63,551 nucleotides of DNA from Acetobacteraceae bacterium (GCA_036521275.1 DATDIC010000124.1:1-63551); one strand, 5' to 3'. Shown: positions 4,221 to 20,396, counted from the first letter of the stretch. The notes: generated from the sequence alone by a model not told the origin. Numbers and translations are program-made.

Positions 4221-5174
4221 ATGACAGCCTATGAGCGGTTGAGGGCGGAGACGACCGAGCGCGACCGCAGCCTGCGGGAGAAAGTCATGTCGCTGGATGA
4301 AGCCGCCCGGCTGGTCCAGCCCGGCGCCCATGTCGCACTTGGCGGGTGCATGATGTCGCGCACGCCCATGGCCATGCTGTGGGCGCTGGTGCGCGCCGGC
4401 CGGCGGGACCTGACCTTCTCGCGCAGTATCGTTTCGTCTGATGGTGATATCATCTTCGCCTCCGGCCTCGGCCGCAAGATCATCACGAGCTGGTTCAGCC
4501 AGGGCATCGTCTGGGGTGTGTCGCGGGTGATGCGCCACTGGGTCGAGACCGGGCGCGCCGAGTTCGAGGAATGGAGCCACATGTCCATGGGCCTGCGCTT
4601 CCGCGCCGGCGCGATGGGGATCCCGTTCATGCCGATCCGCTCGATGATGGGATCGGACGTCCATAGCCGCGTCAGCGCACAGACCCACCCGATGACCTGC
4701 CCCTTCACCGGCGAGCCGCTGGTGCTGGTGCCGGCGCTGACGCCCGATGTCGCGCTGATACACGTGCAGCGCTGCGATCCCTATGGCAATGCCCAGCTCG
4801 ATGGGCTGCAGTTCATGGACATCGACCTGCCGATGGCGGCGAAACGGGTGATCGTGACCACCGAGCGGATCGTCTCCAACGAACGTATCCGCCGCACGCC
4901 CGACCAGACCAAGTTCCCGTTCTTCACCGTCGATGCCGTGGTGGAAGTGCCGTACGGCTGCGCGCCACACGAGTGCTACGGCCAGTACGAGCCGTTCTTC
5001 AAGCATATGGATATGTTCGCCGAAATGACCCGGCAGGACCCCGAACGCGGCAGCCAGGAATACCTGGAGCGCTTCTTTCACGAGCCGCCGTCGTGGAACC
5101 ACGCGCTGGAGCGGATGGGTCTGCAGGATCTGCTGACGGCGACGCGCGGCGGCAGGAGCATCCATGATGCCTGA
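4221..5174 (+). CDS. family-I CoA-transferase subunit A (glutaconate/3-oxoacid CoA-transferase-like)
   Basis: 317-aa ORF with size and N-terminal pattern (SLDEAARLVQPGAHVALGG) typical of alpha subunits. Alternative start at Met23 (4287). Confidence 0.85.
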   Translation: MTAYERLRAETTERDRSLREKVMSLDEAARLVQPGAHVALGGCMMSRTPMAMLWALVRAGRRDLTFSRSIVSSDGDIIFASGLGRKIITSWFSQGIVWGVSRVMRHWVETGRAEFEEWSHMSMGLRFRAGAMGIPFMPIRSMMGSDVHSRVSAQTHPMTCPFTGEPLVLVPALTPDVALIHVQRCDPYGNAQLDGLQFMDIDLPMAAKRVIVTTERIVSNERIRRTPDQTKFPFFTVDAVVEVPYGCAPHECYGQYEPFFKHMDMFAEMTRQDPERGSQEYLERFFHEPPSWNHALERMGLQDLLTATRGGRSIHDA

Positions 5175-5949
5175 ACGCTCCTGCACCGCCGGCACCTATA
5201 CCACCGCCGAGCTGCTCGCCGTGATGGCGAGCCGCGCGCTAAGCGACGGGTTGATCGTGTTTGCCGGCGTCGGCACCCCGCTGCTGGCAGCCACGTTGGC
5301 GCAGCGCCTCCACGCGCCGGGGCTGACCATCCTGTTTGAAGGCGGCGTCATCGGCCCGTTCATCGTGCCCGGGGAGCTGCCGCCGTCCACCAACGAACAG
5401 CGCTGCACCCGCCATGCCAACATGGTGTGCCCGATCACCGACGTGCTCCTGCTGTTGCAGCGCGGCTATGTCGATGTCGGCTTCCTCGGCGGCGCGCAGA
5501 TCGACCGCTATGGCAACCTCAACAGCTCCTTCATCGGCGATCCCGATCATCCGAAAACCCGGCTTCCCGGCACGGGCGGCGGCAATGATATCGCCAGCCT
5601 GTCGCATGTCATGGTGGTGATGAAGCACGAGAAGCGGCGCTTCGTGGAGCAGGTGGAGTTCATTACCAGCCCGGGCTATTTGCGGGGCGGCACCACGCGG
5701 CGTGACGCGGGACTGCTCGCCGGCGGACCGCAGTTGATCATCACCGACCTGGCGGAGCTTGGTTTTCATCCAGAAACCAAGCGGATGCAGATCCAGGCGC
5801 TGCACCCCGGCGTCAGCATCGAGCACGTGCAGGCCAATACGGGTTTCGTCCTCGACATCGCCGGCGATGTGCGGGTCACCGATAAGCCGTCCGAGCGCGA
5901 ACTGCACGTGTTGCGGCAGCTCGACCCGGATCGTCTCTACATCGCCTGA
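5164..5949 (+). CDS. family-I CoA-transferase subunit B
   Basis: 261-aa ORF overlapping subunit A by 11 nt. Candidate catalytic Glu lies in LTILFEGGVIG. The GTGGGNDIA loop is also present. Confidence 0.85.
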   Translation: MMPERSCTAGTYTTAELLAVMASRALSDGLIVFAGVGTPLLAATLAQRLHAPGLTILFEGGVIGPFIVPGELPPSTNEQRCTRHANMVCPITDVLLLLQRGYVDVGFLGGAQIDRYGNLNSSFIGDPDHPKTRLPGTGGGNDIASLSHVMVVMKHEKRRFVEQVEFITSPGYLRGGTTRRDAGLLAGGPQLIITDLAELGFHPETKRMQIQALHPGVSIEHVQANTGFVLDIAGDVRVTDKPSERELHVLRQLDPDRLYIA

Positions 5950-5999
5950 TCTCTGCTCGTCGGCCGGCTGTCTGCGCCGGGCAACACGAAAGGACCGCC

Positions 6000-6947
6000 A
6001 TGCCCGCCAGGATCGGTATTGCCATGCGCAACTTCACCCGGTTCCCGGAATTGCCGGACCCGAAGGCGCTGGTGGAATACGGCGTCTGGGTGGAGGAGCT
6101 GGGCTTCGAGTCGCTGTGGGTCTGGGACCATGTACTTCTCGGCACAGACCCGCATTTCCCGATCGTCGATGCGCTGACGATCCTGACGGCAGTGGCCGCA
6201 CGCACCAGCAAAATCAGGCTGGGTACCGGCGTCCTGGTGCTGCCACTGCGAAATCCGCTTCTGCTGGCCAAGCAGGTCGCGACGCTCGACCTACTCTCTG
6301 ATGGCCGTTTCGAGCTCGGCGCCGCCTCCGGCTGGTACAAGCGCGAGTTCGACGCGGTCGGTGTGCCGTTCAACCAGCGCGGCCGGATCATGGACCGCAA
6401 CCTCGACATCATGATCCGGCTATGGACCGAACCGGCGGTCACCGCCGAGATCCCACCGTACAACATGCGCCAGGCGGTGATGTTCCCGAAGCCGCGGTCG
6501 AAACCGCACCCCACCTTGCTGATCGGCGGCTATGTCGATGCGGTGCTGAAGCGCGCCGGCCAGAAAAGCGACGGCTGGCTGACCTATTTCTACACCCCGG
6601 ACTCGTTCGTACGGTCGTGGAAGAAAGTCTGCGACTACGCCGCGGAAGCGGGCAAGGATCCGTCCACCCTGCATAGCTGCAACCAGCTTCCCATCATGGT
6701 CGGCCCCAGCCGGCAGGCGGTGCAGGACAGGATGATGGAATGGTTGCACACCGAGTGGGACTTTGCCGGCTGGAGCGAGTCCACCGCCGACAGCGCCATC
6801 ATGGGAACGGCGGCAGAGTGCGTCGCGCAGCTTAAGCAGCACGAGCAGGTGGGCACCCAGCGCATCGTGCTGGTGCCTTACCGGTATGAGCGCGAGCAGA
6901 TCGCCGCCATCGCCAATGAGATACTGCCGCACTTCCGGCAGCCGTGA
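6000..6947 (+). CDS. LLM-class (luciferase-like) flavin/F420-dependent oxidoreductase
   Basis: 315-aa ORF with luciferase-like fold signatures (LGFESLWVWDHV, LGTGVLVLPLRNP). Confidence 0.85.
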   Translation: MPARIGIAMRNFTRFPELPDPKALVEYGVWVEELGFESLWVWDHVLLGTDPHFPIVDALTILTAVAARTSKIRLGTGVLVLPLRNPLLLAKQVATLDLLSDGRFELGAASGWYKREFDAVGVPFNQRGRIMDRNLDIMIRLWTEPAVTAEIPPYNMRQAVMFPKPRSKPHPTLLIGGYVDAVLKRAGQKSDGWLTYFYTPDSFVRSWKKVCDYAAEAGKDPSTLHSCNQLPIMVGPSRQAVQDRMMEWLHTEWDFAGWSESTADSAIMGTAAECVAQLKQHEQVGTQRIVLVPYRYEREQIAAIANEILPHFRQP

Positions 6948-6979
6948 TCGAGCCGCACGGGCAAGACGGAGGAAACCGC

Positions 6980-8167
6980 GTGAGTATCAGGATCACCGAA
7001 AACACCACAGCGCGGCGTCTGCAAGCCTACGATCTGCAGGAGGTGCTTTCGCACGAAGCCGCCGGCGCGGCGTTCGCAGCGATATCCGCGTGCCCGCTCT
7101 ATGCGCGGACGCCGCTGCGCCGTCTCGACCGCGTCGCTGCTTCAAGCCGCGTGGCGAATGTGTGGTACAAGGACGAGGCGGATCGGTTCGGGCTGGGCAG
7201 CTTCAAGGCACTCGGCGGCGCCTATGCTGTCGCTCGGCTGCTGCAGCACAAGCTGGCACAACGCCTCGGCCGAGATCTGGGATTGCCGGAGCTGGTCCAA
7301 GGCAACCTGCGCCAACAGACGCAACAGATCACCGTCACCTGCGCGACCGATGGCAATCACGGACGCTCCGTCGCCGCCGGTGCGCGTATTTTCGGCTGCC
7401 GCTGCGTGATCTTCCTGCACGCGGAGGTCAGCCAGGGACGAGAGGACGCGATCCGCGCCTATGGCGCGGACATCGAGCGCATCGCCGGCAATTATGACGA
7501 GTCCGTGCTGGCAGCCTCGCGGGCAGCCGAACGGAACGGCTGGGACGTTGTTTCTGATACGTCCTGGCCCGGCTACGAATCAGTCCCCCGCGACGTGATG
7601 CAGGGCTATACCGTCATGCTCATCGAGACGCTTCAGCAGCTTCAGGAACATGGCGCATCGCGGCCCACGCATGTGTTCGTCCAGGGCGGCGTCGGCGGCC
7701 TGGCAGCAGCGGTGTGCGCGCATCTGTGGGAAGCGATGGGCACCGCCGCGCCGATCACGACGGTGGTCGAGCCGGAGCGCGCGGACTGCCTGTTTCAATC
7801 GGCGCTGGCCGGCCAGCCCACGCCCGCGTCCGGCGATCTCTCCACCGTCATGGCGGGGTTGTCGTGCGGCGAAGTATCCAGCGAGGCATGGCGTGTCCTG
7901 AGCCGCGGCGCCCGGTTCTTCCTGACGATCGACGATGCGATGGCGATCGAGGCGATGCGCCTGCTCGCCCAGTGCGGCGCAAGCGAACAACCGATCATCG
8001 CCGGCGAATCCGCCACGGCCGGGCTCGCCGCACTGATCGCCACCGCGGCGGATCCCGCCCTGCGGCGGCAGATCGAGCTCACCCCCGATTCGTCCGTGCT
8101 GCTGATCGGCAGCGAGGGCGCGACCGATCCCGAGCTCTACCGCAAGCTTGTGGGCCAAGCCGCCTGA
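6980..8167 (+). CDS. diaminopropionate ammonia-lyase-like PLP-dependent enzyme
   Basis: ORF 6944..8167, with the start placed at GTG 6980, which is preceded by GGAGGA. PLP-lysine motif GSFKALGGAY and glycine loop GGVGGLAAAV, as in the DpaL/YgeX family. Confidence 0.8.
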   Translation: MSIRITENTTARRLQAYDLQEVLSHEAAGAAFAAISACPLYARTPLRRLDRVAASSRVANVWYKDEADRFGLGSFKALGGAYAVARLLQHKLAQRLGRDLGLPELVQGNLRQQTQQITVTCATDGNHGRSVAAGARIFGCRCVIFLHAEVSQGREDAIRAYGADIERIAGNYDESVLAASRAAERNGWDVVSDTSWPGYESVPRDVMQGYTVMLIETLQQLQEHGASRPTHVFVQGGVGGLAAAVCAHLWEAMGTAAPITTVVEPERADCLFQSALAGQPTPASGDLSTVMAGLSCGEVSSEAWRVLSRGARFFLTIDDAMAIEAMRLLAQCGASEQPIIAGESATAGLAALIATAADPALRRQIELTPDSSVLLIGSEGATDPELYRKLVGQAA

Positions 8168-8173
8168 CCAGCC

Positions 8174-8980
8174 TTATCCGGCGCCACCACCGCCTTCGCG
8201 TGCGCCATTGCGCAGCAGGTCGATATCGAACCGCACGCAGTCGCCGCGATAGACCACCTCCGCCACATAGGTCACCACGCCCTGCTGGTTGCGGACCAGG
8301 TAGCGCGCCTCCGCCGTCGGCGCGTTCAGCGGAATGCGCAGCCGCTCGCTGGTGTCCGGATGGGCGCTGCCGACGACGACCGTGAGCTGCGCATGATCGA
8401 CGTTCTCGCGCTCAAGCTCCAACAGCAGCGGCAGCGCAGTGCGCGAACGGAAATCCTCGGGAGACCGCTCAAAGATCGCGCGTTCCACGTGTACGCTGGC
8501 GACCGCAAAGGGCTCCCCGGCCCGGAACTGCACGCTGAGCAGGTATTGGTATTCGGCCGCCGCCTTGCCGTCGTCGGGGAACAGCCGCGGCAGCGGCGGC
8601 GGATTCTTCACCGCCAGGAAACGCGGAACATGGCCGCTGATCGACTGGGCGAGCGAATCGATATCGATGGTCAGATGCAACCAGCGGCGCTCCGGCATGT
8701 GCGGCGTGACGAACGTGCCGCGACCTTGCTGGCGATGGACGAGTCCTTCTTTCTCCAGCAGTTCGACGGCCTGGCGCACGGTCACCCGCGCCACGCCGAA
8801 TTCCTGCTCCAGCTCCTCCTGCGTCGGCATCTTCTGTCCGGCCCGGAAATGACCGTCGGCGATGCGATTGCGCAGCAACGTTGCAACCTGGATATAGAGC
8901 GGGATCGGGCTGCGCCTGAACATGTGCAGGCGGCTTTCGGGCGCCTGCCGGCGTGAGCGCTCTTTCATTGGCACAGTCAT
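8174..8980 (-). CDS. GntR-family transcriptional regulator, HutC/UTRA subfamily
   Basis: 268-aa ORF. N-terminal wHTH (LPTQEELEQEFGVARVTVRQAVELLEKEGLV) and a C-terminal UTRA-like effector domain. Divergent from the 9190 operon. Confidence 0.88.
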   Translation of the reverse strand: MTVPMKERSRRQAPESRLHMFRRSPIPLYIQVATLLRNRIADGHFRAGQKMPTQEELEQEFGVARVTVRQAVELLEKEGLVHRQQGRGTFVTPHMPERRWLHLTIDIDSLAQSISGHVPRFLAVKNPPPLPRLFPDDGKAAAEYQYLLSVQFRAGEPFAVASVHVERAIFERSPEDFRSRTALPLLLELERENVDHAQLTVVVGSAHPDTSERLRIPLNAPTAEARYLVRNQQGVVTYVAEVVYRGDCVRFDIDLLRNGAREGGGGAG

Positions 8981-9088
8981 GCTGCGAATCTTCCCCCGGG
9001 TCCCCGCCTGAGCCGACGCACCGCCGACGCTCTACCTCAATCGGCACCGCTACAGGAAGTCTGGCGGCTGCCGGCTGCGGCGGCGGGC

Positions 9089-9129
9089 GGTTGCATGGCA
9101 GGTCTGATTAACTGTAGGATGATGCAACC
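9089..9129. promoter_or_regulatory. inverted repeat, candidate GntR operator in divergent promoter region
   Basis: Perfect 8-nt arms GGTTGCAT-N25-ATGCAACC, 61 nt upstream of the 9190 start codon. It lies in the only sizeable intergenic gap between the regulator and the operon. Confidence 0.3.
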
Positions 9130-9189
9130 TCCTGAGGATGGCTCCCGGCCCGTCTTGGTCGAATCAATCGCGAGCAGAAGGAACAGGAC

Positions 9190-10464
9190 ATGACATCCGA
9201 CCTCCGCCGGAACGTACTCGGCCAGATCGAGGCGGATACCGACAAGGCGATCAAGTTCCTTCAGCAGATGGTTTCAATCCCCAGCGTCACCGGCGATGAG
9301 GCTGCCGTTCAGCGCTTTCTCGCCGATTACATGAACCGGATGGGGCTGACCGTGGACCAGTGGGAAACCGACTGGGAACAGCTCAAGCAACATCCGGGAT
9401 ACCGCCCGGTCGAGCGCGGCTATGAAGGGCGGCCCAATCTCGTCGCCACCTGGAAAGGCACCGGCGGCGGTAGGTCGCTCCTGTTGAACGGCCACTCCGA
9501 CGTGATCCCCGTCGGCAACGGCGAAGGATGGAGCGACAATCCGTGGTCCGCCGCGATCAAGGACGGCCGCATCTATGGACGCGGCGCCGCCGACATGAAA
9601 AGCGGCGTTGCCAGCCACATCATGGCGGTCGCCAGCCTGACGGCGCTCGGCGTCAAGCCAAAGGGCGACGTCTATATCAACATCGTCATCGACGAGGAGG
9701 TCAGCGGCCACGGCACGCTGGACACCGTGATCCGCGGCTACAAGGCCGACGCCGGCATCTCCGGCGAAACCAGCGACCTGGCGATCCAGCCGGCCTGCAT
9801 CGGACGCATCTGGTTCGAGATCGAGATCAGCGGCAAGGCCGCGGGCATCCAGCGGCGCTACGAAGGCGTCAGCGGCATCGAACTCGGCTACAAGATCGCC
9901 AAGGCGGTGGCGGCGCTCGAAGCCGAACGCGTGGCCACGGTGAAGCATCCGCTCTATCCCAGCGCGATCGACGCCATCCCCTGTGCGATCGGCAGCTTCC
10001 AGGCCGGCAATTACCCAAGCGCCTTCCCAGCCACCTGTCTTCTGAAAGGCAGCATCGCCACGGTCCCGGGCGAGGACCACGAAGGCGTCAAGCGGCGGCT
10101 GGTCGATTGGGTCGCGCGCGCCGCGGCCGAAGACCCCTGGATGAAGCTGCACCCGCCGAAAGTCCGTTTCGTCGGCTACGATGCGCAGGCATCGGAAATA
10201 CCCCGCGGTCACCCGATCACCGAAACGGTGTCCAGAGCGTACCGGGAGGTCACCGGACGCGACCCGGCGATCAGCGGCCGTCAGGGCGCGGCCGATACCA
10301 GGTTCCTGAACCAGTACGGCAACACGCCGACCGTGATCTTCGGCCCGGGCTCGACCGCCGTGATGCATTCCGACGACGAGTACGTGGCGATCGACGACTA
10401 CATCACCGCCATCAAGGTTATGGCTCTCAGCATCTGCGACTGGTGTGGGACCGAGACGACATAG
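9190..10464 (+). CDS. ArgE/DapE/ACY1-family M20 deacylase
   Basis: 424-aa ORF with M20 metal-binding motifs (LLLNGHSDVIPVG, GRGAADMKSG, DEEVSGHG). Confidence 0.88.
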   Translation: MTSDLRRNVLGQIEADTDKAIKFLQQMVSIPSVTGDEAAVQRFLADYMNRMGLTVDQWETDWEQLKQHPGYRPVERGYEGRPNLVATWKGTGGGRSLLLNGHSDVIPVGNGEGWSDNPWSAAIKDGRIYGRGAADMKSGVASHIMAVASLTALGVKPKGDVYINIVIDEEVSGHGTLDTVIRGYKADAGISGETSDLAIQPACIGRIWFEIEISGKAAGIQRRYEGVSGIELGYKIAKAVAALEAERVATVKHPLYPSAIDAIPCAIGSFQAGNYPSAFPATCLLKGSIATVPGEDHEGVKRRLVDWVARAAAEDPWMKLHPPKVRFVGYDAQASEIPRGHPITETVSRAYREVTGRDPAISGRQGAADTRFLNQYGNTPTVIFGPGSTAVMHSDDEYVAIDDYITAIKVMALSICDWCGTETT

Positions 10465-10502
10465 CGCCCAAACCGCCACGCCACAGGCAGACAGGAGATC
10501 CG

Positions 10503-11288
10503 ATGCCGCAAGATCTGGTCCTGTTGGAACGCTCGGACCGCATCGCGACCATCCGGCTCAACAACCCGCCGGTGAATGCCGCCTCGCTCGCCCTGCTGGA
10601 GGCGCTGCATTGCGTCCTTGACGACGTCGAGGCGGACACCGCCATACGATGCGTCATCCTGACCAGTACCGGGGAGAAGGCGTTCTGTGCCGGCGCCGAT
10701 CTGCGCGACGAATCCAGGTTGCGCGATCCAGCGGCGAGCGCCGCATTCCGCGCGCTGGGTCGCCGGACGCTGCAGCGCATCGAATCCTGCCGGAAGCCGA
10801 TCGTCGCCGCGATCCATGGCTATTGCATCGGCGGCGGCACCGCGATCGGCTGGGCCTGCGACATTCGGATCGCCGCCGACAACACCGTGTTCCGTGCCGG
10901 CGATGCCTATCTCGGCATCATCCCGAGCTGGGGGATGGGACTGCACCGGCTGCCGCGCTTGCTGGGACGCTCGCGCGCCCTGGACCTTCTTGTGCTGGGC
11001 GGGGATTTCGGCGCCCAGCGCGCGTACGAGCTCGGCCTGGTCACCACCGTGGTGCCGCGCGCCGCTTTGATGCAGGAGGCGACCCGCGCCGCCAGGCGGA
11101 TCGCCAGCGCATCACCCAACGCCATGCTGGCTATCCGCCAGGCGGTGAATTTCAATCTCCGCCATGGCTGGGACGAAATGGCGGACTACGAAGAAGAGCT
11201 CAGCCGCTCCGTTTTCGCGCATCCGGATGCGGCTGAAGGGATGGCGGCCATGCTGGAAAAGCGGACACCGGATTTCCGCGACCTGTAA
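10503..11288 (+). CDS. enoyl-CoA hydratase/isomerase (crotonase) family protein
   Basis: In-frame ATG at 10503 within ORF 9528..11288. Crotonase motifs RLNNPPVNA, FCAGADL and IAAIHGYCIGGG. Confidence 0.88.
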   Translation: MPQDLVLLERSDRIATIRLNNPPVNAASLALLEALHCVLDDVEADTAIRCVILTSTGEKAFCAGADLRDESRLRDPAASAAFRALGRRTLQRIESCRKPIVAAIHGYCIGGGTAIGWACDIRIAADNTVFRAGDAYLGIIPSWGMGLHRLPRLLGRSRALDLLVLGGDFGAQRAYELGLVTTVVPRAALMQEATRAARRIASASPNAMLAIRQAVNFNLRHGWDEMADYEEELSRSVFAHPDAAEGMAAMLEKRTPDFRDL

Positions 11289-12343: not shown

Positions 12344-14442
12344 ACGCACAGCCTCCACGCCTTTCGGTCCGGGAGATCCTGCAGCCCCGGTCCGTCGCCG
12401 TGTTTGGTGCGTCGGACGACCGCGACAAGTTCGGTGGCCGGATCATGCACTTCCTGGTCCGCCACGGTTTCGCCGGACAGATCGTGCCGATCAATCCGCG
12501 GCCACGGCAGATCCTCGGACGAACCGCATACGCATCGCTTGCCGATGCGCCGATCAAGGCCGAGGTCGCGATCCTTGCAGTGCCGGTGAACCATCTGCTG
12601 GGGGCGGTCGAGCAATGCGCGGCGGCCGGCGTCGGCTGCTGCGTGATCATCGCGACCGGATTTGCCGAAGCCAACGAAGCCGGCGCCGCACTGCAGCAGC
12701 GCATACTTGATGTCGCGCTGCCGGCGGGCATGCGGATCATCGGGCCGAACTGCATGGGGCTGATCAATCCGGGATGGCGGCTCGCGCTCTGTTCCTCCGT
12801 CGTGCTCGATAGCAGCGAGTTGCTGCTGGGCCACATCGGACTGGTCAGCCAGAGCGGCGCGCTGATGGTGTCGCTGTTCGACCGGGCGGTGTCGAACGGG
12901 ATCGGATTCAGCGCCTGCGTATCGCTCGGGAACCAGTCGGACCTGGAGATCTGCGACTTCCTGGACTATTTCATCGACGATCCCGGCACCGACGCGCTCT
13001 GTGTCTATATCGAGGGATTGCGGGACCCTGCCCGCTTCGTCCGTGCAGCCGCCGCGTGCCGGCGAGCCGGCAAGCCGATGGTGGTGGTCAAGACCGGCAA
13101 GACAAGCGACGGGGTGCGCGCGGCACGCTCCCACACGGCAAGCCTGGCCGGCGATTACGATGCATTCGCCGCGATATGCCGTGCGCATGGTGTCGTCCTC
13201 GCGGACGATCCGGTGACGATGGTGCGGATCGCCGATCTGCTGCTCCGCGAGCCGCTGCCACGGTCGGATGGGATCGGCATCCTGTCCGGCTCCGGCGGCG
13301 GTACCGGGCTGATGGTGGATCGGGTGGTCGGAGCGGGCCTTCGACTGGCGCGCCTGTCGCAGCCGGCGCGCGCCGCGCTGGGCGAATTGTTGCTTCCACC
13401 ACAGGCGGATAATCCGATCGATCTTGGCGGCCGCCTGCCCTCGCAGCCCGACGACATTGCCGCGCCGGCCATGCGCACACTCGCATCCGATCCCGATGTC
13501 GGGCTGTTGCTGCTGTATCTTACGTCGATGCCGTTTTTCGAAGCACGTGCACGAGTCCTGGCCCAAACCGCACTGGAGTCGGGAAAGCCCGTCATCGCCG
13601 TGATGCTGCCCGGCCCGGCCGCGGATCGCCCGCGTGCGGTGCTACGGGAACTCGGCTGCTCGTATTTCGATTCGACGGACGACATGCTGGCGGCCCTGCG
13701 CGGCGTGTACGAATACCGCGCCGGTCTGACAGCGCCGACCATATCGCCGCAGCGCCCCGACGACCTGCCAGCAGGACCTCCGCCCCTGAACGACGTGCCG
13801 GGGCTGGTCGCTGCGTACGGCATCGAGGTCCCGCGCGCGGTCGCTTGCGCGACGCCGCAACAGGCCCAGGCAGCCGCTGTGTCGATCGGGTTTCCGGTCG
13901 TCCTGAAGGGTCTGGTTAGCGGGGTAAGCCATAAGACGGAACTGCAGGCGGTCAAAACCGGGCTGGCCGACACAGCCGCCGTCAACACCGCCTGGAACGA
14001 CATCGCCGCGTCCATCGCGCGGCACGATTTGGCGGACGCGTTCACCGGCTGCCTGGCGCAGGAACAGGCGCCACCAGGACTGGAGCTGATCCTGTCCATC
14101 CGCAACGATCCCCAGTTCGGCCCGTTCGTGCTGGTGGGCGCCGGCGGCACGCTGGTCGAACTGTTGCACGACGTCGCATCAGCCCCGGCGCCGGTTTCGC
14201 GCCCGCAGGCGAGGCGATTGGTAAACGGCTTGCGTTGCGCCAGGCTGCTGGATTCCTGGCGCGGCGGACCGCCGCGCGACGTCGAAGCCGTCATCGACGC
14301 GCTCGAACGGCTGAGCTGGCTGGCGCACGACCTGGGCAAGCGCCTGGTGGACCTGGAGATCAACCCGCTGATAGCGGGAGAGGCCGGCGCGGGCGTACGT
14401 GCCGTGGACATACGCGCAGAGTGGGCGGAGTCATCATCATGA
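12340..14442 (+). CDS. ADP/NDP-forming acyl-CoA synthetase (acetate--CoA ligase family, fused alpha/beta)
   Basis: 700-aa ORF whose GTG start overlaps the previous stop (GTGA). N-terminal CoA-binding domain (SVAVFGASDDRDKFGG), a CoA-ligase domain and a C-terminal ATP-grasp domain. Confidence 0.85.
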   Translation: MNAQPPRLSVREILQPRSVAVFGASDDRDKFGGRIMHFLVRHGFAGQIVPINPRPRQILGRTAYASLADAPIKAEVAILAVPVNHLLGAVEQCAAAGVGCCVIIATGFAEANEAGAALQQRILDVALPAGMRIIGPNCMGLINPGWRLALCSSVVLDSSELLLGHIGLVSQSGALMVSLFDRAVSNGIGFSACVSLGNQSDLEICDFLDYFIDDPGTDALCVYIEGLRDPARFVRAAAACRRAGKPMVVVKTGKTSDGVRAARSHTASLAGDYDAFAAICRAHGVVLADDPVTMVRIADLLLREPLPRSDGIGILSGSGGGTGLMVDRVVGAGLRLARLSQPARAALGELLLPPQADNPIDLGGRLPSQPDDIAAPAMRTLASDPDVGLLLLYLTSMPFFEARARVLAQTALESGKPVIAVMLPGPAADRPRAVLRELGCSYFDSTDDMLAALRGVYEYRAGLTAPTISPQRPDDLPAGPPPLNDVPGLVAAYGIEVPRAVACATPQQAQAAAVSIGFPVVLKGLVSGVSHKTELQAVKTGLADTAAVNTAWNDIAASIARHDLADAFTGCLAQEQAPPGLELILSIRNDPQFGPFVLVGAGGTLVELLHDVASAPAPVSRPQARRLVNGLRCARLLDSWRGGPPRDVEAVIDALERLSWLAHDLGKRLVDLEINPLIAGEAGAGVRAVDIRAEWAESSS

Positions 14443-15311
14443 AGCGGTGTGGTTTCATAGTCTTCCTTGTCGCCGCACTCGCGGTGATGAGCGGGCGGGC
14501 AGCGCTCGCGCAAAGCACTTGCACGCCAAAGCTGGGGCAGCCGCCGCTGGTGCGCGCCGGGACGCTGATCGCGGCGATCAACCCGACCGTGGCCCCGATC
14601 CAGTATGTCGATGACAGCGGCAACATCATCGGTCTCGATGTCGATCTGGGCAACGAGATCGCCAAGCGCCTGTGCCTGAAAATGGTGTTTCAGAGCACGC
14701 AATTCGCGACGATGATCCCGCTGCTGAAGGAAGGCCGGATCGACATGATCAATTCCTTCATGTTCTACACGCCGGAGCGCGCCGCGCAGGTGCTGATGGT
14801 GCCTTACGGTGCTTCGACGATGTCGATCGTGGTGCCGAAGACCAACACCGACACCATCTCCGGCCCGGAATATTTCTCCGGCAAGAGCTTCGGCGTGGAG
14901 TTGGGGACGGTTGATTTAAGGGACGCCCAGGCCGCCAGCGAAGCTTTGCAGAAGGCCGGCAAGCCGCCGATCACCATCCGGACCTTCGACACCTATGCCA
15001 ATGTGCTGCAGGCGCTCTCGGCCGGACAGGTTGACGGTGCGTTCATCGGCACCGAGGAGTCATTCTACTATCGCAAGAAGGGCGTGAATTTCTTCCGCAT
15101 CGCCCTGACCGGCTATGATCCGCACGCCGAGGCGCTCGCCTTCAAGGACGCTGCCGTGGCCGATGCGGTCGCGGCTGTGATGAACGAGATGCACACCGAC
15201 GGAACCTTCGACAAAATCTTCAAGCCCTATGGTCACTGCGTGCTGCCAGGCCCCTACAAAGTAACTTCGGGCCCGCTGCCGACGCCGGACTGCCCGGCGC
15301 AAGCGCCATGA
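14439..15311 (+). CDS. ABC transporter substrate-binding protein, family 3 (polar amino acid/opine type)
   Basis: ATG 14439 overlaps the previous stop (ATGA). Signal peptide MKRCGFIVFLVAALAVMSGRAALA. Family-3 binding-protein pattern. Confidence 0.85.
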   Translation: MKRCGFIVFLVAALAVMSGRAALAQSTCTPKLGQPPLVRAGTLIAAINPTVAPIQYVDDSGNIIGLDVDLGNEIAKRLCLKMVFQSTQFATMIPLLKEGRIDMINSFMFYTPERAAQVLMVPYGASTMSIVVPKTNTDTISGPEYFSGKSFGVELGTVDLRDAQAASEALQKAGKPPITIRTFDTYANVLQALSAGQVDGAFIGTEESFYYRKKGVNFFRIALTGYDPHAEALAFKDAAVADAVAAVMNEMHTDGTFDKIFKPYGHCVLPGPYKVTSGPLPTPDCPAQAP

Positions 15312-15316: not shown

Positions 15317-16639
15317 TCAGCGCCGCCGCGGATATGAAAGACCCAGATGGTCCCGCAGCATTGAACCCGCATACTCGGTCCTGAACAGGCCCCGGCGCTG
15401 CAACACCGGCACCACCTGTTCAACGAACACCGTTAGTTCGTCCGGGAACCAGGCCGGCATGATGTTGAAACCGTCGCATGCGCCGGAGTCCAGCCAGAGC
15501 TGCATATAATCGGCCAGCCCCTCCACGGTGCCGACGAACGTCCCGTGCGAACGCGACTTGGCCACGAGGTTGGCGCACGCATGCACGGTCAGGCCCTCGC
15601 GGTCCGCGCGGTCGAGCAGGCTGATCACCCGCGGCGTGAAGGACCCGCCCGAGGCGCGGATATCGCCGGTCGGCAGCTTCGCGTCGAGCGCGTAGTCATA
15701 GAGCCGGAACTGCATCTGCTCGCTCAACATCCACACGCCGACCGCCGGCAGGATAAGCTCGTCGAGCTCGGCCTCCTTGCGTCTCGCCTCCTGCTCTGTC
15801 GACCCGACGATGGGCGATAGCCCGGGCAATATCTTCAGCTCGTCGGCGCAGCGGCCGTACTCGGCCATCCGCCGCCTGACCGTGTCGCGAAAATTGCGCG
15901 CCTCATCGAGCTTGCTTTGCGCCGCGAAGATGGTTTCCGCCACCATCGCCGCAAACTCTATTCCCGCCGGCGACCCGCCCGCCTGCACCAGCACCGGCCA
16001 GCCTTGCGGCGGTCGTGGCAGCTCCAACGCGCCCCGGACGGAGAAGAACCGTCCCTGGTGGTCGATTGGATGGATGCGCGCCGGATCGGCGAACACGCCG
16101 CGCGCACGGTCGGCGACCACCGCATCATCGTCCCAACTGTCCCACAGGGCGATGCAGATATCGACGAACTCCTTTGCCCGCTCGTAACGGAGCGTCTTCT
16201 CCATGTGGCTCTTTTGTCCGAAATTATACGCCGCATCGTCATTCGCGGTGGTGATGATGTTCCATCCCGCCCGGCCATTGCTGATATGATCGAGGGACGC
16301 AAAGCGCTCGGCTATGTAATAGGGCTCGTTGTAGGTCGTTGACAGCGTCGCGATCAGTCCCAGGCACTCGGTCACTGCTGAAATCGCCGAGGTGATCGAG
16401 ATCGAATCGATGTTATTGAGCCCGCCCTCGCGGACGACGCGACCGTCTTTCTCACGGGCTGCAAGCATGTCGCCCACGAAGAACAGGTCGAACTTGCCGC
16501 GTTCGGCAATCTGCGCTGCCGTGCGATAGAAATCCATCCCGGCAATCCCGCGCGGGTCCACGGCGGGATGCCGCCAGCTCGCGATGTGATGGCCCGCTGG
16601 GTAAATGAAAAGGCCAAGATGCATCTGCGACCTGGTCAA
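15317..16639 (-). CDS. NtaA/SnaA/DszA-family flavin-dependent monooxygenase (LLM class)
   Basis: 440-aa ORF with signatures MHLGLFIYPAGHH, GRAGWNIITT and DGFNIMP. Confidence 0.9.
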   Translation of the reverse strand: MTRSQMHLGLFIYPAGHHIASWRHPAVDPRGIAGMDFYRTAAQIAERGKFDLFFVGDMLAAREKDGRVVREGGLNNIDSISITSAISAVTECLGLIATLSTTYNEPYYIAERFASLDHISNGRAGWNIITTANDDAAYNFGQKSHMEKTLRYERAKEFVDICIALWDSWDDDAVVADRARGVFADPARIHPIDHQGRFFSVRGALELPRPPQGWPVLVQAGGSPAGIEFAAMVAETIFAAQSKLDEARNFRDTVRRRMAEYGRCADELKILPGLSPIVGSTEQEARRKEAELDELILPAVGVWMLSEQMQFRLYDYALDAKLPTGDIRASGGSFTPRVISLLDRADREGLTVHACANLVAKSRSHGTFVGTVEGLADYMQLWLDSGACDGFNIMPAWFPDELTVFVEQVVPVLQRRGLFRTEYAGSMLRDHLGLSYPRRR

Positions 16640-17781
16640 CCCGAAATCTCCCTGTACTGGCTTGCCGGACGGGGCAACCCGAAATGGTCCCGCAGCGTCG
16701 CGCCGGCGTACTCAGCCCGGAATAGACCCTGAGCGCGTGCCAGCGGGATCACCGCATCGACAAGCAGGGCGACATCATCGGGCAACACGGCAGGAAGCAG
16801 ATTGAAACCATCGCACGCACCCGCTTCAGACCATTTCGTAAATAACTCAACCAACGCCTCCGGCGTGCCGACGAACCGCGGGATGGCCGACCCGGGTGCC
16901 ACCAGATAATCGAGACGTTCGGCGCGCTGGCGGGCTTCAGCGGCGGTGGGTGCAAGGACGATGCCCAGATCGGCCAGCACGCGAAACGAACTTGGATCAC
17001 GCGCCTGCATGGCCGCCAGCCTGTGCAGATCTTTGTAGCGGCCAGCCGCCTCCGCTAACGACGCGCAGCGGGTAAGGATGATATCGGCGGTCTCAACAAC
17101 CAGTCGCCGGCCGTCGGCGCTTGCCGGGTCGGACTGTATTAGAACAGGATATCCCTGCGGCGGGCGCGGTACGTTCAGCGGCCCCCGGATGGTGAAATAC
17201 CTGCCGTGATGGTCGATCCGGTGCACGCGGTCGGGGTCGACGAACATCCCGCTGGCCTTGTCCACCGCGAACGCTTCATCCTCCCAACTGTCCCACAGCT
17301 TTTCGACCGCACTGATGAATTCGCCCGCCCGCTCGCAATAGTCGGACAGCCCGTCGGTCCCGGGCGGTCGCCCGATGCGCGCTGCCAGCGCATCCGTGCC
17401 GAACATGTGTACCAGCCAGGCGGAACGCCCGTACGACAGATGATCCAGCGTCGCCAGCACGCGGGCAATATGAAACGGCTCGGTGAAATCGACCGTCCAG
17501 CCGGCGGCCACGCCGATTCGGGTAGTCCTGGCGATCAACGCTCCCGCCAGCGGCAATGGATCGAGCTGCATCGTGTTGGCCCGCCCGACTCCGCCGACGC
17601 GCAGGGCATCAGTGCCATGGCCCAGCAGGATCGCATCCAGGCAGCCCCGTTCCGCCGCCCGGACGATCGGGTAAAGATCCGCGGCGCCCGGCGATGGCGG
17701 CAAACCCGACGCCTGCCCCGACACCTGCCAGGAAGCCGGATGGTAGCCGCTGCCGGCGATCGACAAAGTAAGATGCAGCAT
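16636..17781 (-). CDS. NtaA/DszA-like LLM monooxygenase, shorter divergent paralogue
   Basis: ORF 16636..17937 trimmed to Met53 (MLHLTLSIAGSGYHP), which lies 4 nt after the ABC ATPase stop. Signatures GRSAWLVHMF and DGFNLLP. 4-nt overlap with the downstream paralogue. Confidence 0.82.
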   Translation of the reverse strand: MLHLTLSIAGSGYHPASWQVSGQASGLPPSPGAADLYPIVRAAERGCLDAILLGHGTDALRVGGVGRANTMQLDPLPLAGALIARTTRIGVAAGWTVDFTEPFHIARVLATLDHLSYGRSAWLVHMFGTDALAARIGRPPGTDGLSDYCERAGEFISAVEKLWDSWEDEAFAVDKASGMFVDPDRVHRIDHHGRYFTIRGPLNVPRPPQGYPVLIQSDPASADGRRLVVETADIILTRCASLAEAAGRYKDLHRLAAMQARDPSSFRVLADLGIVLAPTAAEARQRAERLDYLVAPGSAIPRFVGTPEALVELFTKWSEAGACDGFNLLPAVLPDDVALLVDAVIPLARAQGLFRAEYAGATLRDHFGLPRPASQYREISG

Positions 17782-17785
17782 GGGA

Positions 17786-18550
17786 TCAGACCTTGCCGGT
17801 GACCAGGCGCAGGAACTTCTGCGTGCGTTCGTTGCGCGGGTTGGCAACAAGCTCGTCCGGGCGCCCCTGCTCGACGATCTCGCCGTCTTCCATGAACAGG
17901 ATGCGGTCGGCCGCCTTGTTGGCGAACTGAATTTCATGCGTAACGATAATCATCGTCATTCCCTGCCGGGTGAGGTCCAGCATCACTTGCAGCACTTCGG
18001 CCACCATCTCCGGATCCAGCGCCGATGTGGGCTCGTCGAACAGCATGACCTTGGGGTGCATCGCCAGCGAGCGGGCGATGGCAACGCGTTGCTGCTGGCC
18101 GCCGGAAAGCTGGTCCGGATAGAAATCCGCCTTGTCTTCCAGCGCCACCAGCTCCAGCAGGCGCCGCGCCTCCCGGGCTGCTTCCTTCCTGGAATGCCGG
18201 AGCACCTGGACCGGCCCCGACATGATGTTTTCCAGCGCCGTCATGTGGCTGAACAGGTTGAACTGCTGAAACACCATCCCCACGTGGCGCCGCTGCGCCG
18301 ACAGCATCGCGTCGGACGCCGCAATCAAGCCGCCGCCGTTGCCGGGGCGATACCCGAGCAATGTCCCGTCGATCCTGACGCTGCCGCGATCCGGCACATC
18401 CAGACGATTGAGGGTCCGCAGAAAGGTGCTCTTGCCGCTGCCGCTCGGCCCGATGATGACGACGACTTCGCCGCGCGTGACTTCGATATCCACGCCGCGC
18501 AGCACGTGATTGGCCCCGAAGAACTTGTGGATGCCCTTCGCCTCGATCAT
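17786..18550 (-). CDS. amino acid ABC transporter ATP-binding protein
   Basis: Walker A GPSGSGKST, signature LSGGQQQRVAIAR, Walker B MLFDEPTSALD. Start is either 18550 (MIEAKGIHKFFG) or 18595. Confidence 0.92.
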   Translation of the reverse strand: MIEAKGIHKFFGANHVLRGVDIEVTRGEVVVIIGPSGSGKSTFLRTLNRLDVPDRGSVRIDGTLLGYRPGNGGGLIAASDAMLSAQRRHVGMVFQQFNLFSHMTALENIMSGPVQVLRHSRKEAAREARRLLELVALEDKADFYPDQLSGGQQQRVAIARSLAMHPKVMLFDEPTSALDPEMVAEVLQVMLDLTRQGMTMIIVTHEIQFANKAADRILFMEDGEIVEQGRPDELVANPRNERTQKFLRLVTGKV

Positions 18551-18581
18551 CCATCTCGCGGCGCTGCCGCCGCCGGCCACG

Positions 18582-19331
18582 TCAGGTGGAATCATGCGAC
18601 AGCACCACTTCGGAAAGCTCCAGCTTCGCCATTTCCGGGGCGGGCCCGCGCGATCGTGCCGACGCGGTAACCGAGCGGGAGAAATGCGCCTCCAGCCGGC
18701 GCTGCACGAACCCCCACAGGGTCGTCAGGATCAGGTAGTAGATCGCCGCAACGATGAAAATCTCCAGCACCTTGAACTGCACCTGGATCAAAAGCTCGGT
18801 GCGCCGCAGCAATTCTTCCATGGAGATGACGGACGCCAGCGAGGAGGTCTTCATCAGGCCGTTAAAGGAATTCCCGAGCGGCGGTATGATGATCCGCAGG
18901 GCCTGCGGCATGACGACGACGCGCATCGTCGTGGTGCGGGTCATCCCGATCGAACGGGCTGCCTCGAACTGGCCGCGCGGAACGGCAGAGATGCCGGCGC
19001 GGATGATCTCCGCCAGGTAGGCGCCTTCGTTCACGCCAAGGCCAATCAGCGCCGAGGCAAGCACGCCCAGCTTGATGCCAAGCTGCGGCAGGCCGGTGTA
19101 GATGATGATCAGTTGCACGAGCACGGGCGTGCCGCGAAACAACCACACGTAGAACGTCGCCGGCTGGCGCAGCAGCGGATTGCGGGACATGCGCATCAGT
19201 GCAGCGGCCAGGCCGCAGAGCAGTCCAATTCCCATCGCGCCGATCGAGAGCCCAAGCGAGACGCCGGCCCCTTCAATCAGATACAGGCTATGGAGGTAAT
19301 GGAAAAATGTGCTCCAGTCCCACATAGTCAT
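18582..19331 (-). CDS. amino acid ABC transporter permease (HisM/GlnP type)
   Basis: Polytopic ORF with an EAA-type loop (EAARSIGMTRTTTMRVVVMPQALR). The start is ambiguous among Met codons at 19340, 19331 and 19325. Confidence 0.88.
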   Translation of the reverse strand: MTMWDWSTFFHYLHSLYLIEGAGVSLGLSIGAMGIGLLCGLAAALMRMSRNPLLRQPATFYVWLFRGTPVLVQLIIIYTGLPQLGIKLGVLASALIGLGVNEGAYLAEIIRAGISAVPRGQFEAARSIGMTRTTTMRVVVMPQALRIIIPPLGNSFNGLMKTSSLASVISMEELLRRTELLIQVQFKVLEIFIVAAIYYLILTTLWGFVQRRLEAHFSRSVTASARSRGPAPEMAKLELSEVVLSHDST

Positions 19332-19478
19332 CGCCCCCATGGGCACAGCAGCGCCGTACGTGTTGGAAGCAATATCCAGACCGGTGTCAAGCCGCGACTT
19401 TGCTGATCGCGGCGCCACAGGGCGAACGCTGGCGCCATTCGTGCCACGACGGATCAATCACACCGAAGGGAACCAGAA

Positions 19479-20396
19479 ATGCGAAGGGTCATCGACTTGG
19501 AATGCGATTTGCCACCCGATGAAAACGGCAAGCCACGGAAACAGGAAGGCGCCGCCCATCCCCCGGGATACGGCGATCCGGAGCGGCTGGAACCGCTGCC
19601 GGGTCACGGATTCTCCAATTATCAGCGCATCTTTTCCCGCCGCGGCGAAGCTGCCGAAGCCCCCGGCCCAGACACCCCGCACGGAATGTCCATCGCCGAT
19701 TTCGTCGGCCTGATGGATCGCGCCGGTGTGCAGGTGGGCGTCCTGCGCGCGAGCAACGGGATGATCGCCGATATCCTCGCAAGTTTCCCCAAGCGATTCA
19801 TCGGACTGGCATCGATCAGTCCGCATGACGGCATGCGCGGCGTGCGGGAACTGGTCCGCCTGGTGAAAGAACGCGGGTTCGGCGCACTTCGCGTGTCGTC
19901 GCTCTACAACATGCTTCCAGCCAGCGACCGGCGTTACTACCCGCTCTATGCAAAATGCGTGGAGCTCGACATTCCGGTGCGGATCTACGCCAGCATGAAC
20001 TACGCCAACGACCGGGCGTACGATCTTGGACATCCGCGACACATCGATCAGATCGCGGTGGACTTCCCCGAGTTGCGGATCATCGCCGGGCTGGGTGGCT
20101 GGCCGTGGGTGAACGAGATGGTGGCCTTGTTGCGGCGCCATCCCAATCTCTATTGCGACACGGCGTCGCACCGCCCCAGGTATTTCGGTGTACGCGGTTC
20201 GGGATGGGAGCAGTTTTTGCAATTCGGCAACACGCTGCTGCAGGACAAGATCATGGTCGGCCTCTCGTGGGAGGCGTTCGGCGTACCAATGGAAGCGCTG
20301 ATAGAAGAATATGCCGCCTTGCCTCTCAAGGGACCGGTCCTCGACAAGTGGCTGTTCGGCAATGCGAGGAACTTCTTCCGCCTCGCTACCCTTTGA
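19479..20396 (+). CDS. amidohydrolase-2 family metal-dependent hydrolase/decarboxylase (ACMSD/LigI-like)
   Basis: 305-aa ORF with a TIM-barrel amidohydrolase_2-like pattern (RVIDLECDLP, PELRIIAGLGGWPW, YCDTAS). Confidence 0.75.
   Translation: MRRVIDLECDLPPDENGKPRKQEGAAHPPGYGDPERLEPLPGHGFSNYQRIFSRRGEAAEAPGPDTPHGMSIADFVGLMDRAGVQVGVLRASNGMIADILASFPKRFIGLASISPHDGMRGVRELVRLVKERGFGALRVSSLYNMLPASDRRYYPLYAKCVELDIPVRIYASMNYANDRAYDLGHPRHIDQIAVDFPELRIIAGLGGWPWVNEMVALLRRHPNLYCDTASHRPRYFGVRGSGWEQFLQFGNTLLQDKIMVGLSWEAFGVPMEALIEEYAALPLKGPVLDKWLFGNARNFFRLATL

Follow-up and report, generated by a model that had tools for sequence, protein, structure and literature searches.

Gene content of the region

A stretch of 63,551 nt from an Acetobacteraceae bacterium (GCA_036521275.1 DATDIC010000124.1:1-63551), referred to below as the window, carries at positions 4221-20396 a group of genes for which an initial annotation proposed an accessory island with a candidate undescribed catabolic pathway. 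All 15 genes of this feature proved to be real at or near their annotated positions, with a strong coding signal in the open reading frame listing and in the codon-position GC (GC3 0.75-0.87), and every gene family named for them was confirmed by Pfam, NCBIfam and PDB matches. The tight packing was also borne out: overlaps of 4-14 nt occur at the CoA-transferase A/B junction, between the luciferase-like monooxygenase (LLM) and DpaL genes, at TauD/ACS and ACS/SBP, at N2/N1 and between the ABC permease and ATPase (designations as in Table 1), and most other junctions are short gaps, for which reason the layout in three transcription units is sound. The proposed left boundary at 4221 did not hold. 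The system extends to a CoxLMS(G)-type molybdenum hydroxylase on the minus strand (3-4086); the companions of the adjoining genes in other genomes include CoxLMS homologues, and the CoxG, CoxS, CoxM and CoxL genes of the window are therefore counted in.

The genes fall into two modules (Table 1). Module A consists of CoxGSML, a GctAB-like CoA-transferase, a TIGR03619 LLM, DpaL, a HutC-type GntR regulator and an M20 deacylase. Module B comprises a crotonase, a TauD-like dioxygenase, an ADP-forming acyl-CoA synthetase, a family-3 ABC importer, the LLM pair N1/N2 and an amidohydrolase-2. Very probably, these two modules are inherited separately elsewhere and have been physically fused in one clade of soil bacteria, which is probably Acetobacteraceae. 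Our confidence is evenly divided over the broader statement that positions 3-20396 form a chromosomal catabolic region in which the modules are joined regulatorily as well as physically in a single clade of soil Alphaproteobacteria.

All parts belong to known enzyme families, and neither module matches a characterised pathway in the literature searched. The view of a catabolic locus of named families without a characterised counterpart in that literature can thus be kept, but the idea of a single pathway inherited as a 14-gene unit cannot. Support for the term accessory island is weak: the GC content is slightly lower (0.635-0.66 versus approximately 0.68 in the flanks, i.e., 2-4 points), but no tRNA gene is present, no integrase, transposase or other mobility gene was found among the genes scanned, and the remainder of the window is chromosomal housekeeping (pyrB, rpsF, rplI, fusA, aroC, fabI). 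An Rfam scan of the window and four of the loci compared below gave no match, and no xanthine (NMT1) riboswitch reached the gathering score.

Table 1. Genes and control regions at positions 3-20396 of the window (PLP, pyridoxal 5'-phosphate; ABC, ATP-binding cassette; FMNH2, reduced flavin mononucleotide).
Feature	Position	Strand	Family assignment or remark
CoxG-like	3-347	-	last gene of the CoxLMSG operon, truncated by the window start; Pfam COXG; tblastn to CoxS-CoxG fusions of L083/L089
CoxS, [2Fe-2S] small subunit of molybdenum hydroxylase	351-845	-	NCBIfam XdhC/PucE/glyceraldehyde-DH gamma family, 150-167 bits
CoxM, FAD-binding medium subunit	842-1654	-	NCBIfam
CoxL, molybdopterin-binding large subunit	1651-4086	-	Pfam Ald_Xan_dh_C + MoCoBD_1/2
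Divergent control region of the CoxL and CoA-transferase operons	4087-4220	.	predicted promoter and GTAGGATG
CoA-transferase subunit A (GctA-like, family I)	4221-5174	+	PF01144; 153 bits to GctA, PDB 1POI_A
CoA-transferase subunit B (GctB-like)	5164-5949	+	176 bits to GctB, PDB 1POI_B
LLM oxidoreductase, predicted F420-dependent	6000-6947	+	TIGR03619, 199 bits, cut-off 166.9
DpaL/YgeX-like PLP enzyme	6944-8167	+	NF006058, 504 bits, cut-off 276
GntR/HutC-type regulator with UTRA domain	8174-8980	-	PF00392 + PF07702
Divergent control region of GntR and M20	8981-9189	.	putative promoter and GTAGGATG
M20 ArgE/DapE-family deacylase, first gene of unit 2	9190-10464	+	Pfam; TIGR01910, 263 bits
Crotonase-fold enoyl-CoA hydratase/isomerase (ECH)	10497-11288	+	PF00378, 195 bits
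TauD/TfdA-family Fe(II)/2-oxoglutarate dioxygenase, unnamed subfamily	11309-12343	+	PF02668
Fused alpha/beta ADP-forming acyl-CoA synthetase (ACS)	12340-14442	+	Pfam CoA_binding_2 + Succ_CoA_lig + ATP-grasp_5
Periplasmic binding protein, family 3, polar amino acid type (SBP3)	14439-15311	+	PF00497
N1, full-length NtaA/DmoA-family FMNH2-dependent monooxygenase, presumed catalytic	15317-16639	-	TIGR03860, 516 bits
N2, degenerate NtaA-family paralogue, presumed non-catalytic	16636-17784	-	278.6 bits versus TIGR03860 cut-off 279.7
ABC ATPase, polar amino acid type	17786-18595	-	PF00005; best models GlnQ/EhuA/TcyN, all under cut-off
ABC permease	18582-19340 (ATG start) or 19457 (TTG start)	-	PF00528
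Amidohydrolase-2 (AH2)	19479-20396	+	PF04909

Members and distribution of the two modules

The neighbourhood comparison was anchored on the TauD-like gene and covered 77 loci with flanks of 10 kb, each GTDB species being represented by one genome; all window proteins were mapped onto these loci with tblastn. Loci from metagenome-assembled genomes (MAGs) that are based on long-read assemblies carry frameshifts, which split some of the matches. It was found that the full arrangement of both modules is restricted to four closely related soil MAG species (L001, L002, L014, L015), in which the TauD-like protein is 89-95% identical; soil metagenomes contain near-identical sequence. Conservation of the 14-gene set as a block was thereby refuted outside this small group: the modules occur apart, and a single co-inherited 14-gene pathway fails because the units are found independently in other genomes.

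Module A is the local version of a widespread alphaproteobacterial cluster without a matching characterised pathway. It was found without TauD or NtaA genes on S. meliloti pSymA, in Azospirillum, Rhodospirillaceae and Xanthobacteraceae, and on an 8.3 Mb MAG contig (L090). The Xanthobacteraceae loci L083-L085 hold CoxL-CoxM-CoxS/G, GntR/UTRA, M20, Fno, FbiC, a CysK-like PLP enzyme, CoA-transferase A/B and the LLM, and a further locus of this family (L086) has no CoxLMS in range and separate CofE/CofD/CofC/CofG/CofH genes. Azospirillum sp. sgz301742 (L089) and a Rhodospirillaceae isolate (L091) combine module A with PxpABC-like genes, F420 genes and Fno. The L090 contig, which is without module B, carries a Liv-type ABC system, CoA-transferase A/B, LLM, M20 and CoxSML. 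On pSymA (L092; CP130049.1 ~49.5-70.8 kb), the order is pyrC-Liv ABC-npdG-cofD-cofC-fbiC-CoA-transferase A-CoA-transferase B-LLM-M20-PntAB-CoxLMS/G-SBP-DpaL-GntR.

All tested members of module A (CoxLMS, the GctAB-like CoA-transferase, the TIGR03619 LLM, M20 and the HutC-type GntR) co-localise at 3-10464 of the window and share 42-88% identity with clusters elsewhere. Compared by family, homologues in module A loci are 57-90% identical for the CoA-transferase and LLM (61-82% for CoA-transferase subunit A), 63-80% for CoxL and 42-61% for GntR, homologues of which adjoin module A in five lineages. CoxS is 61-74% identical to module-linked CoxS proteins in other genomes, and CoxM homologues of 48-62% identity are present in L083, L089, L090, L092 and L093. 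CoxL itself lies under every NCBIfam cut-off and belongs to the xanthine dehydrogenase/CO dehydrogenase family, with no specific subfamily reached. By inheritance, M20 is a module A gene: it is 77-88% identical to the M20 proteins of L083-L086, L090 and S. meliloti, and homologues of approximately 80% identity occur in many Xanthobacteraceae and Rhizobiales contigs. It is of the ArgE/DapE type and scores 119 bits against the YgeY model (cut-off 321).

The PLP enzyme is a bona fide member of the DpaL family by model NF006058 (Table 1) and remains under the cut-off of TIGR03528 (350 versus 532 bits). It aligns to 5YGR/4D9G with 245 bits and keeps both the lysine of FK(A/G)LGG (here FKALGG) and the TDGNHG motif (ATDGNHGR); we take the lysine to be PLP-binding and likewise presume the role of the TDGNHG aspartate. 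The DpaL gene of Skermanella stands alone, which makes its context uninformative. In CoA-transferase subunit B, the segment ILFEGG aligns with IIVESG of GctB and keeps the Glu, presumably the catalytic residue, whereas the AibB decarboxylase has Asn/Ser-Val there and no Glu. No NCBIfam equivalog was reached by the CoA-transferase.

Module B was found without unit 1, GntR and M20 within 10 kb in at least 11 species (L003, L004, L006-L013, L075), five of them labelled Acetobacteraceae, and on contig L081. The gene order in these genomes is AH2>TauD>ACS>SBP3> and <N1<N2<ATPase<permease, which places AH2 directly upstream of TauD. More distant versions exist. Reyranella/Enhydrobacter have CoxSML, a cyclic amidohydrolase, TauD, in part SBP3, N1, N2 and ABC genes. 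A plasmid of the cultured Geminicoccaceae strain SCSIO 64248 carries CoxSML with an alpha/beta hydrolase and an amidohydrolase, divergent from a thiamine pyrophosphate (TPP) enzyme>N2-like>N1-like>ECH>acyl-CoA dehydrogenase>ACS>Dpp-type ABC>TauD>MarR. In Rokubacteria/Methylomirabilota, the TauD-like gene keeps company with a PhyH dioxygenase and a family-5 ABC system, and further with ACS or, in its place, a two-domain family III CoA-transferase with AH2. Module B is widespread in soil Acetobacteraceae and Reyranella, and its TauD/ACS/AH2 core also occurs in Rokubacteria; it may thus represent a part of nitrogen turnover in soils that has been overlooked. Only a minority of the loci have a crotonase orthologue with TauD (84% identity in L008, 72% in L019, in both cases directly upstream of TauD, and 46% in the Geminicoccaceae plasmid operon).

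For the TauD-like protein, no NCBIfam model gave a match, those for TauD and AtsK included, so that orthology to characterised TauD, AtsK or TfdA was not found; its only PDB matches are FrbJ 5EQN and 7N7V (~167 bits). Residues H150, D152, H288 and R303 are invariant in 21 homologues; the first three would form the 2-His-1-carboxylate iron triad and R303 would be the 2-oxoglutarate-binding Arg. An AlphaFold model built on a 21-sequence alignment has a mean pLDDT of 60, with active-site segments below 50, values too low for the model to be of use. Homologues of 56-59% identity lie in L050 (7390-12396), and in the same layout in L056 and L064, within the series xanthine permease (TIGR03173, 532 bits)-PuuD-type urate oxidase-TauD-like-ArgE/DapE M20-TctC. 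This neighbourhood suggests that some members of the family act on oxidised purines. The likeness to the fungal xanthine dioxygenase XanA that comes to mind here is our assumption, drawn from gene context rather than from a comparison of sequences.

ACS aligns to the 4-hydroxybutyrate-CoA ligase 8WZU (303 bits) and to the dimethylsulfoniopropionate lyase DddX 7CM9 (249 bits) and contains SHTASLAG, presumably the phosphohistidine motif of its family. The best PDB matches of SBP3 are binders of the Gln/Arg type, and the position of the carboxylate-binding Arg aligns. The best model for the permease is a cystine permease (216 bits, cut-off 300); the DNA upstream of its position 19340 is conserved. 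AH2 is closest to the uncharacterised BB4693 (3IRS). Its N-terminal IDLEC is conserved in AH2 and 24 homologues (25 sequences), at a site where we take the family to carry normally the metal-binding HxH of IDxHxH; this points to an unusual active site.

The initial annotation described N1 and N2 as two NtaA/DszA-type monooxygenases. The family is correct, but the two proteins are not equivalent. N1 is a TIGR03860 member that is equidistant from DszA (325 bits), the nitrilotriacetate (NTA) monooxygenase 3SDO (322) and YtnJ (314), with EmoA at only 216 bits, and by these scores has no specific kinship to NtaA/EmoA over other family members. N2 is without residues 300-362 of N1 (a 63-residue deletion), has lost 26 of the 81 positions at which N1 orthologues and paralogues show a conservation of 95% or more, and no longer has the QAGxS motif (VQAGGS in N1, IQSDPA in N2). 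Its orthologues are 42-61% identical where those of N1 are 66-86% identical, which means that N2 evolves about twice as fast. N2 is hence a degenerate copy, and it has probably lost its catalytic function. Acetobacteraceae, Reyranella and Geminicoccaceae nevertheless all keep it beside N1 as a partner, and it is translationally coupled to N1 by overlap.

Heterodimeric luciferase-like enzymes include SnaA/SnaB and LuxAB. Another such pair, StmO1/StmO2 (PDB 7E36, PMC8027225), likewise consists of two adjacent coupled LLM paralogues, one full and one reduced, and N1 and N2 each match both chains of 7E36. Because N2 is degenerate and StmO1/O2 provides a structural precedent, a heterodimer of catalytic N1 and non-catalytic N2 appears to be the likeliest reading. 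StmO1/O2, SnaA/SnaB and LuxAB serve antibiotic biosynthesis or light emission, whereas N1/N2 sit in a catabolic/transport operon and their dimer is predicted.

Links between the modules

In the clade of the window, M20 heads the operon M20-ECH-TauD-ACS-SBP3, by which a module A gene leads into module B. The gap between M20 and ECH is 32 nt and has no predicted terminator. The Liv-type importer that accompanies module A elsewhere is absent here, and the sole importer is that of module B. Furthermore, CoxL beside module A and CoxL beside module B belong to one orthologue group (59-82% identity): the window CoxL is 80% identical to that of Azospirillum, and the CoxL proteins of L090 and L009 are 82% identical to each other.

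The control regions point in the same direction. A promoter scan predicted TGGACA-17-TAGCAT at 4123-4151 in the spacer between CoxL and CoA-transferase subunit A, where a block is conserved in four of five species. Phylogenetic footprinting of the GntR-M20 spacer revealed a block of approximately 50 nt that is nearly invariant in five species, with diverging flanks, and a putative promoter TTGCAT (9091-9096)-18-TAGGAT (9115-9120). Both blocks overlap plausible sigma-70 promoters. The octamer GTAGGATG occurs exactly twice in the 63.5 kb, at 4117-4124 and 9114-9121, with one copy per block, both oriented alike. As both promoters carry the same conserved element, GntR probably controls both unit 1 and unit 2. 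Module A promoters of other genera carry a related element, ATAG(A/T)ATGAT. In S. meliloti this element is part of a 21-mer, CATACTATAAATA(G/A)(A/G)ATGATA, that recurs almost unchanged upstream of the CoA-transferase and CoxL operons (L092 10009-10273 and 17468-17640); the dyad symmetry of this 21-mer is imperfect, and GntR is a candidate to bind it as an operator. Two other patterns were discarded: CAGG(N)CTGAT was not found in module A loci of other genera, and no motif common to all three promoter regions rose above background, either in a search for ungapped 14-mers or in local alignments compared with shuffled sequences.

The spacer between CoxL and CoA-transferase subunit A is longer in L014 (2660-2910). 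The conserved promoter block is replaced there by unrelated sequence, possibly an inserted repeat element, between flanking genes that are 95-98% identical.

Taken together, the units are joined in this clade, by the M20-ECH-TauD-ACS-SBP operon and by the promoter element that units 1 and 2 have in common, and are not co-inherited elsewhere. Whether the modules are also coupled regulatorily and functionally in the window's clade is a question on which we stand midway, since several findings weigh against it. The spacer between the permease and AH2 has no element in common with those of units 1 and 2, and a simple local alignment of the promoters of units 1 and 2 does not reach significance (39 of 300 shuffles). 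These genomes hold many CoxLMS paralogues, and an identity of 60-66% is no proof of a common substrate. Statements that a module occurs alone are valid within the 10 kb flanks. Finally, the independence of the modules elsewhere also fits two unrelated pathways that happen to lie side by side.

This last explanation, in which two or three unrelated catabolic operons are neighbours and both their adjacency and the M20-ECH junction are without functional meaning, is considered rather unlikely, although it is the strongest of the alternatives. It agrees with the many genomes in which one module is present without the other and is served by a transporter of its own (Liv-type for module A; family 3, family 5 or TctC for module B), and with the lack of a motif in common with unit 3 or AH2. 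However, it leaves the short unterminated M20-ECH gap, the restriction of GTAGGATG to the two promoters and the retention of the arrangement in four species as coincidences. It also does not account for a module A that here is without its usual Liv-type importer, nor for one CoxL orthologue group that adjoins both modules in separate lineages. The joining of the modules is preferred, and the case is instructive for annotation: what looks like a neat "island" may have arisen recently from modules with separate lines of inheritance.

Other gene groups of the window were recorded in passing. A second nitrogen-compound cluster at 47779-59263 contains an ABC ATPase (47779-48897), SBP_bac_11 (50617-51630), another M20 (52042-53421), genes A and B of an ATP-dependent hydantoinase/oxoprolinase (54189-57925) and, at 57959-59263, a binding protein of the Liv type. 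An 804-aa gamma-glutamyltranspeptidase (25811-28225), of which approximately 280 N-terminal residues are without a Pfam match, adjoins a tripartite ATP-independent periplasmic (TRAP) transporter (DctP 24559-25578, fused DctQM 22700-24550), and a DUF1800/DUF1501 gene pair is located at 43951-46450.

Candidate chemistry and known systems

From the gene families, modular distribution, synteny, promoter conservation and N2 degeneracy described above, we infer the chemical steps, the use of F420 here and the substrate class as follows. In module A, the molybdenum hydroxylase would oxidise a ring carbon next to nitrogen to give a lactam, the CoA-transferase would form a thioester, and the LLM would give a hydride to the activated ring, with F420H2 as the donor where F420 is made. 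M20 may then open or deacylate the amide, a place taken in other lineages by PxpABC-like or dihydroorotase (DHOase)-like enzymes, and DpaL would strip the nitrogens of a 2,3-diamino acid fragment to yield a 2-oxo acid and ammonia. More generally, the loss of nitrogen from a 3-substituted alanine fragment would fall to a PLP beta-family enzyme, which is DpaL in the window and in S. meliloti and CysK-like in other lineages. In module B, the importer would take up an amino-acid-like carboxylate, ACS would convert it into a CoA thioester that is processed by ECH, and the TauD-like enzyme would act as a hydroxylase. The predicted FMNH2-dependent N1/N2 heterodimer may cleave a C-N or C-heteroatom bond oxidatively, and AH2 could hydrolyse or decarboxylate the product.

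A hydroxylate-reduce-hydrolyse route is suggested for module A because a molybdenum hydroxylase is paired with a CoA-transferase, a hydride-transferring LLM lies amid an F420H2 supply, and amide or lactam hydrolases are interchangeable. Tentatively, and with more doubt than confidence, the substrate is taken to be an N-heterocycle or lactam-type carboxylate rather than an opine or aminopolycarboxylate. Hints of N-heterocycles among recurring neighbours are the molybdenum hydroxylase, cyclic amidohydrolases, DUF1989, 5-oxoprolinase-like PxpABC, and xanthine permease with urate oxidase.

The supply of F420H2 is a feature of module A elsewhere. F420 biosynthesis genes (fbiC or cofG/H, cofC, cofD, cofE) and Fno are interleaved with module A in L083, L086, L089, L091 and L092, i.e., in Xanthobacteraceae, Azospirillum, Rhodospirillaceae and S. 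meliloti, which represent at least four alphaproteobacterial families, and LLM orthologues of 57-85% identity lie inside or beside these genes. PntAB is also part of the S. meliloti cluster. According to a 2021 review, none of the F420-dependent enzymes of Proteobacteria has been studied, and it is unknown why these bacteria produce F420 (PMC8498797). Module A is a candidate for this physiological role. A genome-wide association study (GWAS) in S. meliloti associated the same gene set with nodule competitiveness and assigned no function to it (PMC8407117); the set comprised the fbi genes, GctAB, a 'caffeine dehydrogenase', a deacylase, the 2,3-diaminopropionate (DAP) ammonia-lyase, PntAB, PyrC, Liv and GntR (PMC8407117). 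The tie of module A to F420 biosynthesis has hitherto been noticed only as such a list of co-occurring genes. The module therefore offers a concrete gene set for work on F420 in the culturable S. meliloti GR4/KH35c/KH46 and Azospirillum sp. sgz301742, and its statistical tie to nodule competitiveness provides a link to symbiosis (PMC8407117).

These strands may be joined into one reading, which as a whole is improbable. Module A would be the missing F420 use in Alphaproteobacteria, inducible and under GntR control, with electrons passing from NADPH through Fno to F420H2 (PntAB may supply the NADPH in S. meliloti). The LLM would reduce a CoA-activated N-heterocyclic lactam made by CoxLMS, the ring would be opened by M20, PxpABC or a DHOase-like enzyme, and DpaL would deaminate a fragment of the 2,3-diaminopropionate type. 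In the window's clade, this module would be fused with and fed by the TauD/NtaA-pair module with its catalytically dead LLM partner. Candidate substrates would be rings with N-C(COOH)-C-N, among them imidazole-4-carboxylate and pyrazine-2-carboxylate. This chemistry, too, meets contrary observations. F420 biosynthesis genes and Fno were found neither in the 63.5 kb window nor within 10 kb of module A in L090, for which reason the use of F420 in this organism is a conjecture. DpaL is missing from L001 and L090, and other lineages carry the unrelated CysK-like PLP enzyme instead; DAP, a plausible intermediate, may therefore not be an obligatory one. No flavin reductase domain was found in the 15 genes at 4221-20396 or in the CoxLMSG genes.

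The initial annotation had envisaged one dedicated pathway that imports an N-substituted or N-acylated amino acid (an opine, an aminopolycarboxylate or a DAP conjugate), strips it with the NtaA-type and TauD-type oxygenases and M20, uses DpaL on DAP and passes the acid portion into metabolism as its CoA thioester. The membership of N1 in the NtaA family, the polar amino acid ABC system, the bona fide DpaL and M20, and the presence of M20 and TauD/ACS/SBP in one operon of a block kept in four species are all consistent with it. More distant TauD homologues, moreover, sit with Dpp/Opp-type family-5 binding proteins, which include opine binders. However, the genes are not inherited as one set, N1 is no closer to NtaA/EmoA than to DszA or YtnJ, and neither an NtaB/EmoB-type reductase nor an iminodiacetate oxidase or ethylenediaminedisuccinate (EDDS) lyase accompanies it. 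The scheme also leaves out the conserved molybdenum hydroxylase and the F420 link, and DpaL is dispensable in L001 and L090. A single pathway is thus given a low probability, and its aminopolycarboxylate or opine substrate gained no specific support, as N1 is equidistant from DszA, NTA monooxygenase and YtnJ and the island has no flavin reductase.

It is very improbable that module B is a system induced by sulfate starvation for scavenging sulfur from organosulfur amino acids or sulfonates, comparable to TauD/SsuD systems and to the B. subtilis ytmI and yxeK operons: a TauD family member, 314 bits of N1 to YtnJ, transporter models led by cystine permease and TcyN, and an M20 deacylase would suit it, but all transporter matches are under cut-off, no TauD or AtsK model is matched, no N-acetyltransferase, CysB/Cbl-type regulator or flavin reductase is present, and this scheme was rejected as the main explanation because subfamily models do not match, CoA ligase and crotonase chemistry is alien to it, and the island proteins are not depleted in Cys and Met (3.86% versus 3.13% in the rest of the window).

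Compared with characterised systems, the two modules that appear joined here resemble several in part. NtaAB/EmoAB share with module B the TIGR03860 family of N1 and an adjacent binding-protein-dependent importer, whereas the window is without the NtaB/EmoB reductase and the partner of N1 is a degenerate LLM paralogue. ADP-forming short-chain acid CoA ligases and DddX have the same fused alpha/beta architecture as ACS, which lies far under their equivalog cut-offs (331-355 bits versus 1200-1300). The E. coli ygeX (DpaL)-ygeY (M20)-xdh region, which we take to be linked to purine breakdown, also brings together a DAP ammonia-lyase, an M20 hydrolase and enzymes of the xanthine dehydrogenase family. 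In the window, however, M20 is of the ArgE/DapE type, carbamoyltransferase, carbamate kinase and selenium-linked genes are absent, and the CoA-transferase and LLM have no counterpart in the E. coli region.

The nicotinate route via tetrahydro-6-oxonicotinate in Eubacterium barkeri and Azorhizobium caulinodans proceeds by hydroxylation, reduction and hydrolysis (PMC3511419). Module A would follow this logic: a molybdenum hydroxylase would give a lactam, a low-potential reductase would saturate the ring, an amidohydrolase would open it and a dicarboxylate would enter metabolism via CoA chemistry. The genes differ, and the likeness is an analogy only. Identity of module A with the Azorhizobium pathway was rejected, since that pathway depends on reductase and enamidase genes like those of E. 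barkeri (PMC3511419).

The accessory 'fbi' region of S. meliloti pSymA (GR4, KH35c, KH46, R28; PMC8407117) differs from the window in both directions. It alone has npdG, cofD/cofC/fbiC, PntAB, a DHOase-like pyrC and a Liv-type importer, the window having no F420, Fno or Pnt genes, and it is without the TauD, NtaA-pair, ACS, ECH and AH2 genes of the window. What the two regions share is module A, present in S. meliloti as one cluster with identities of 62/67% for CoA-transferase A/B, 57% for the LLM, 77% for M20, 63/52/64/46% for CoxL/M/S/G, 43% for DpaL and 42% for the HutC-type GntR.

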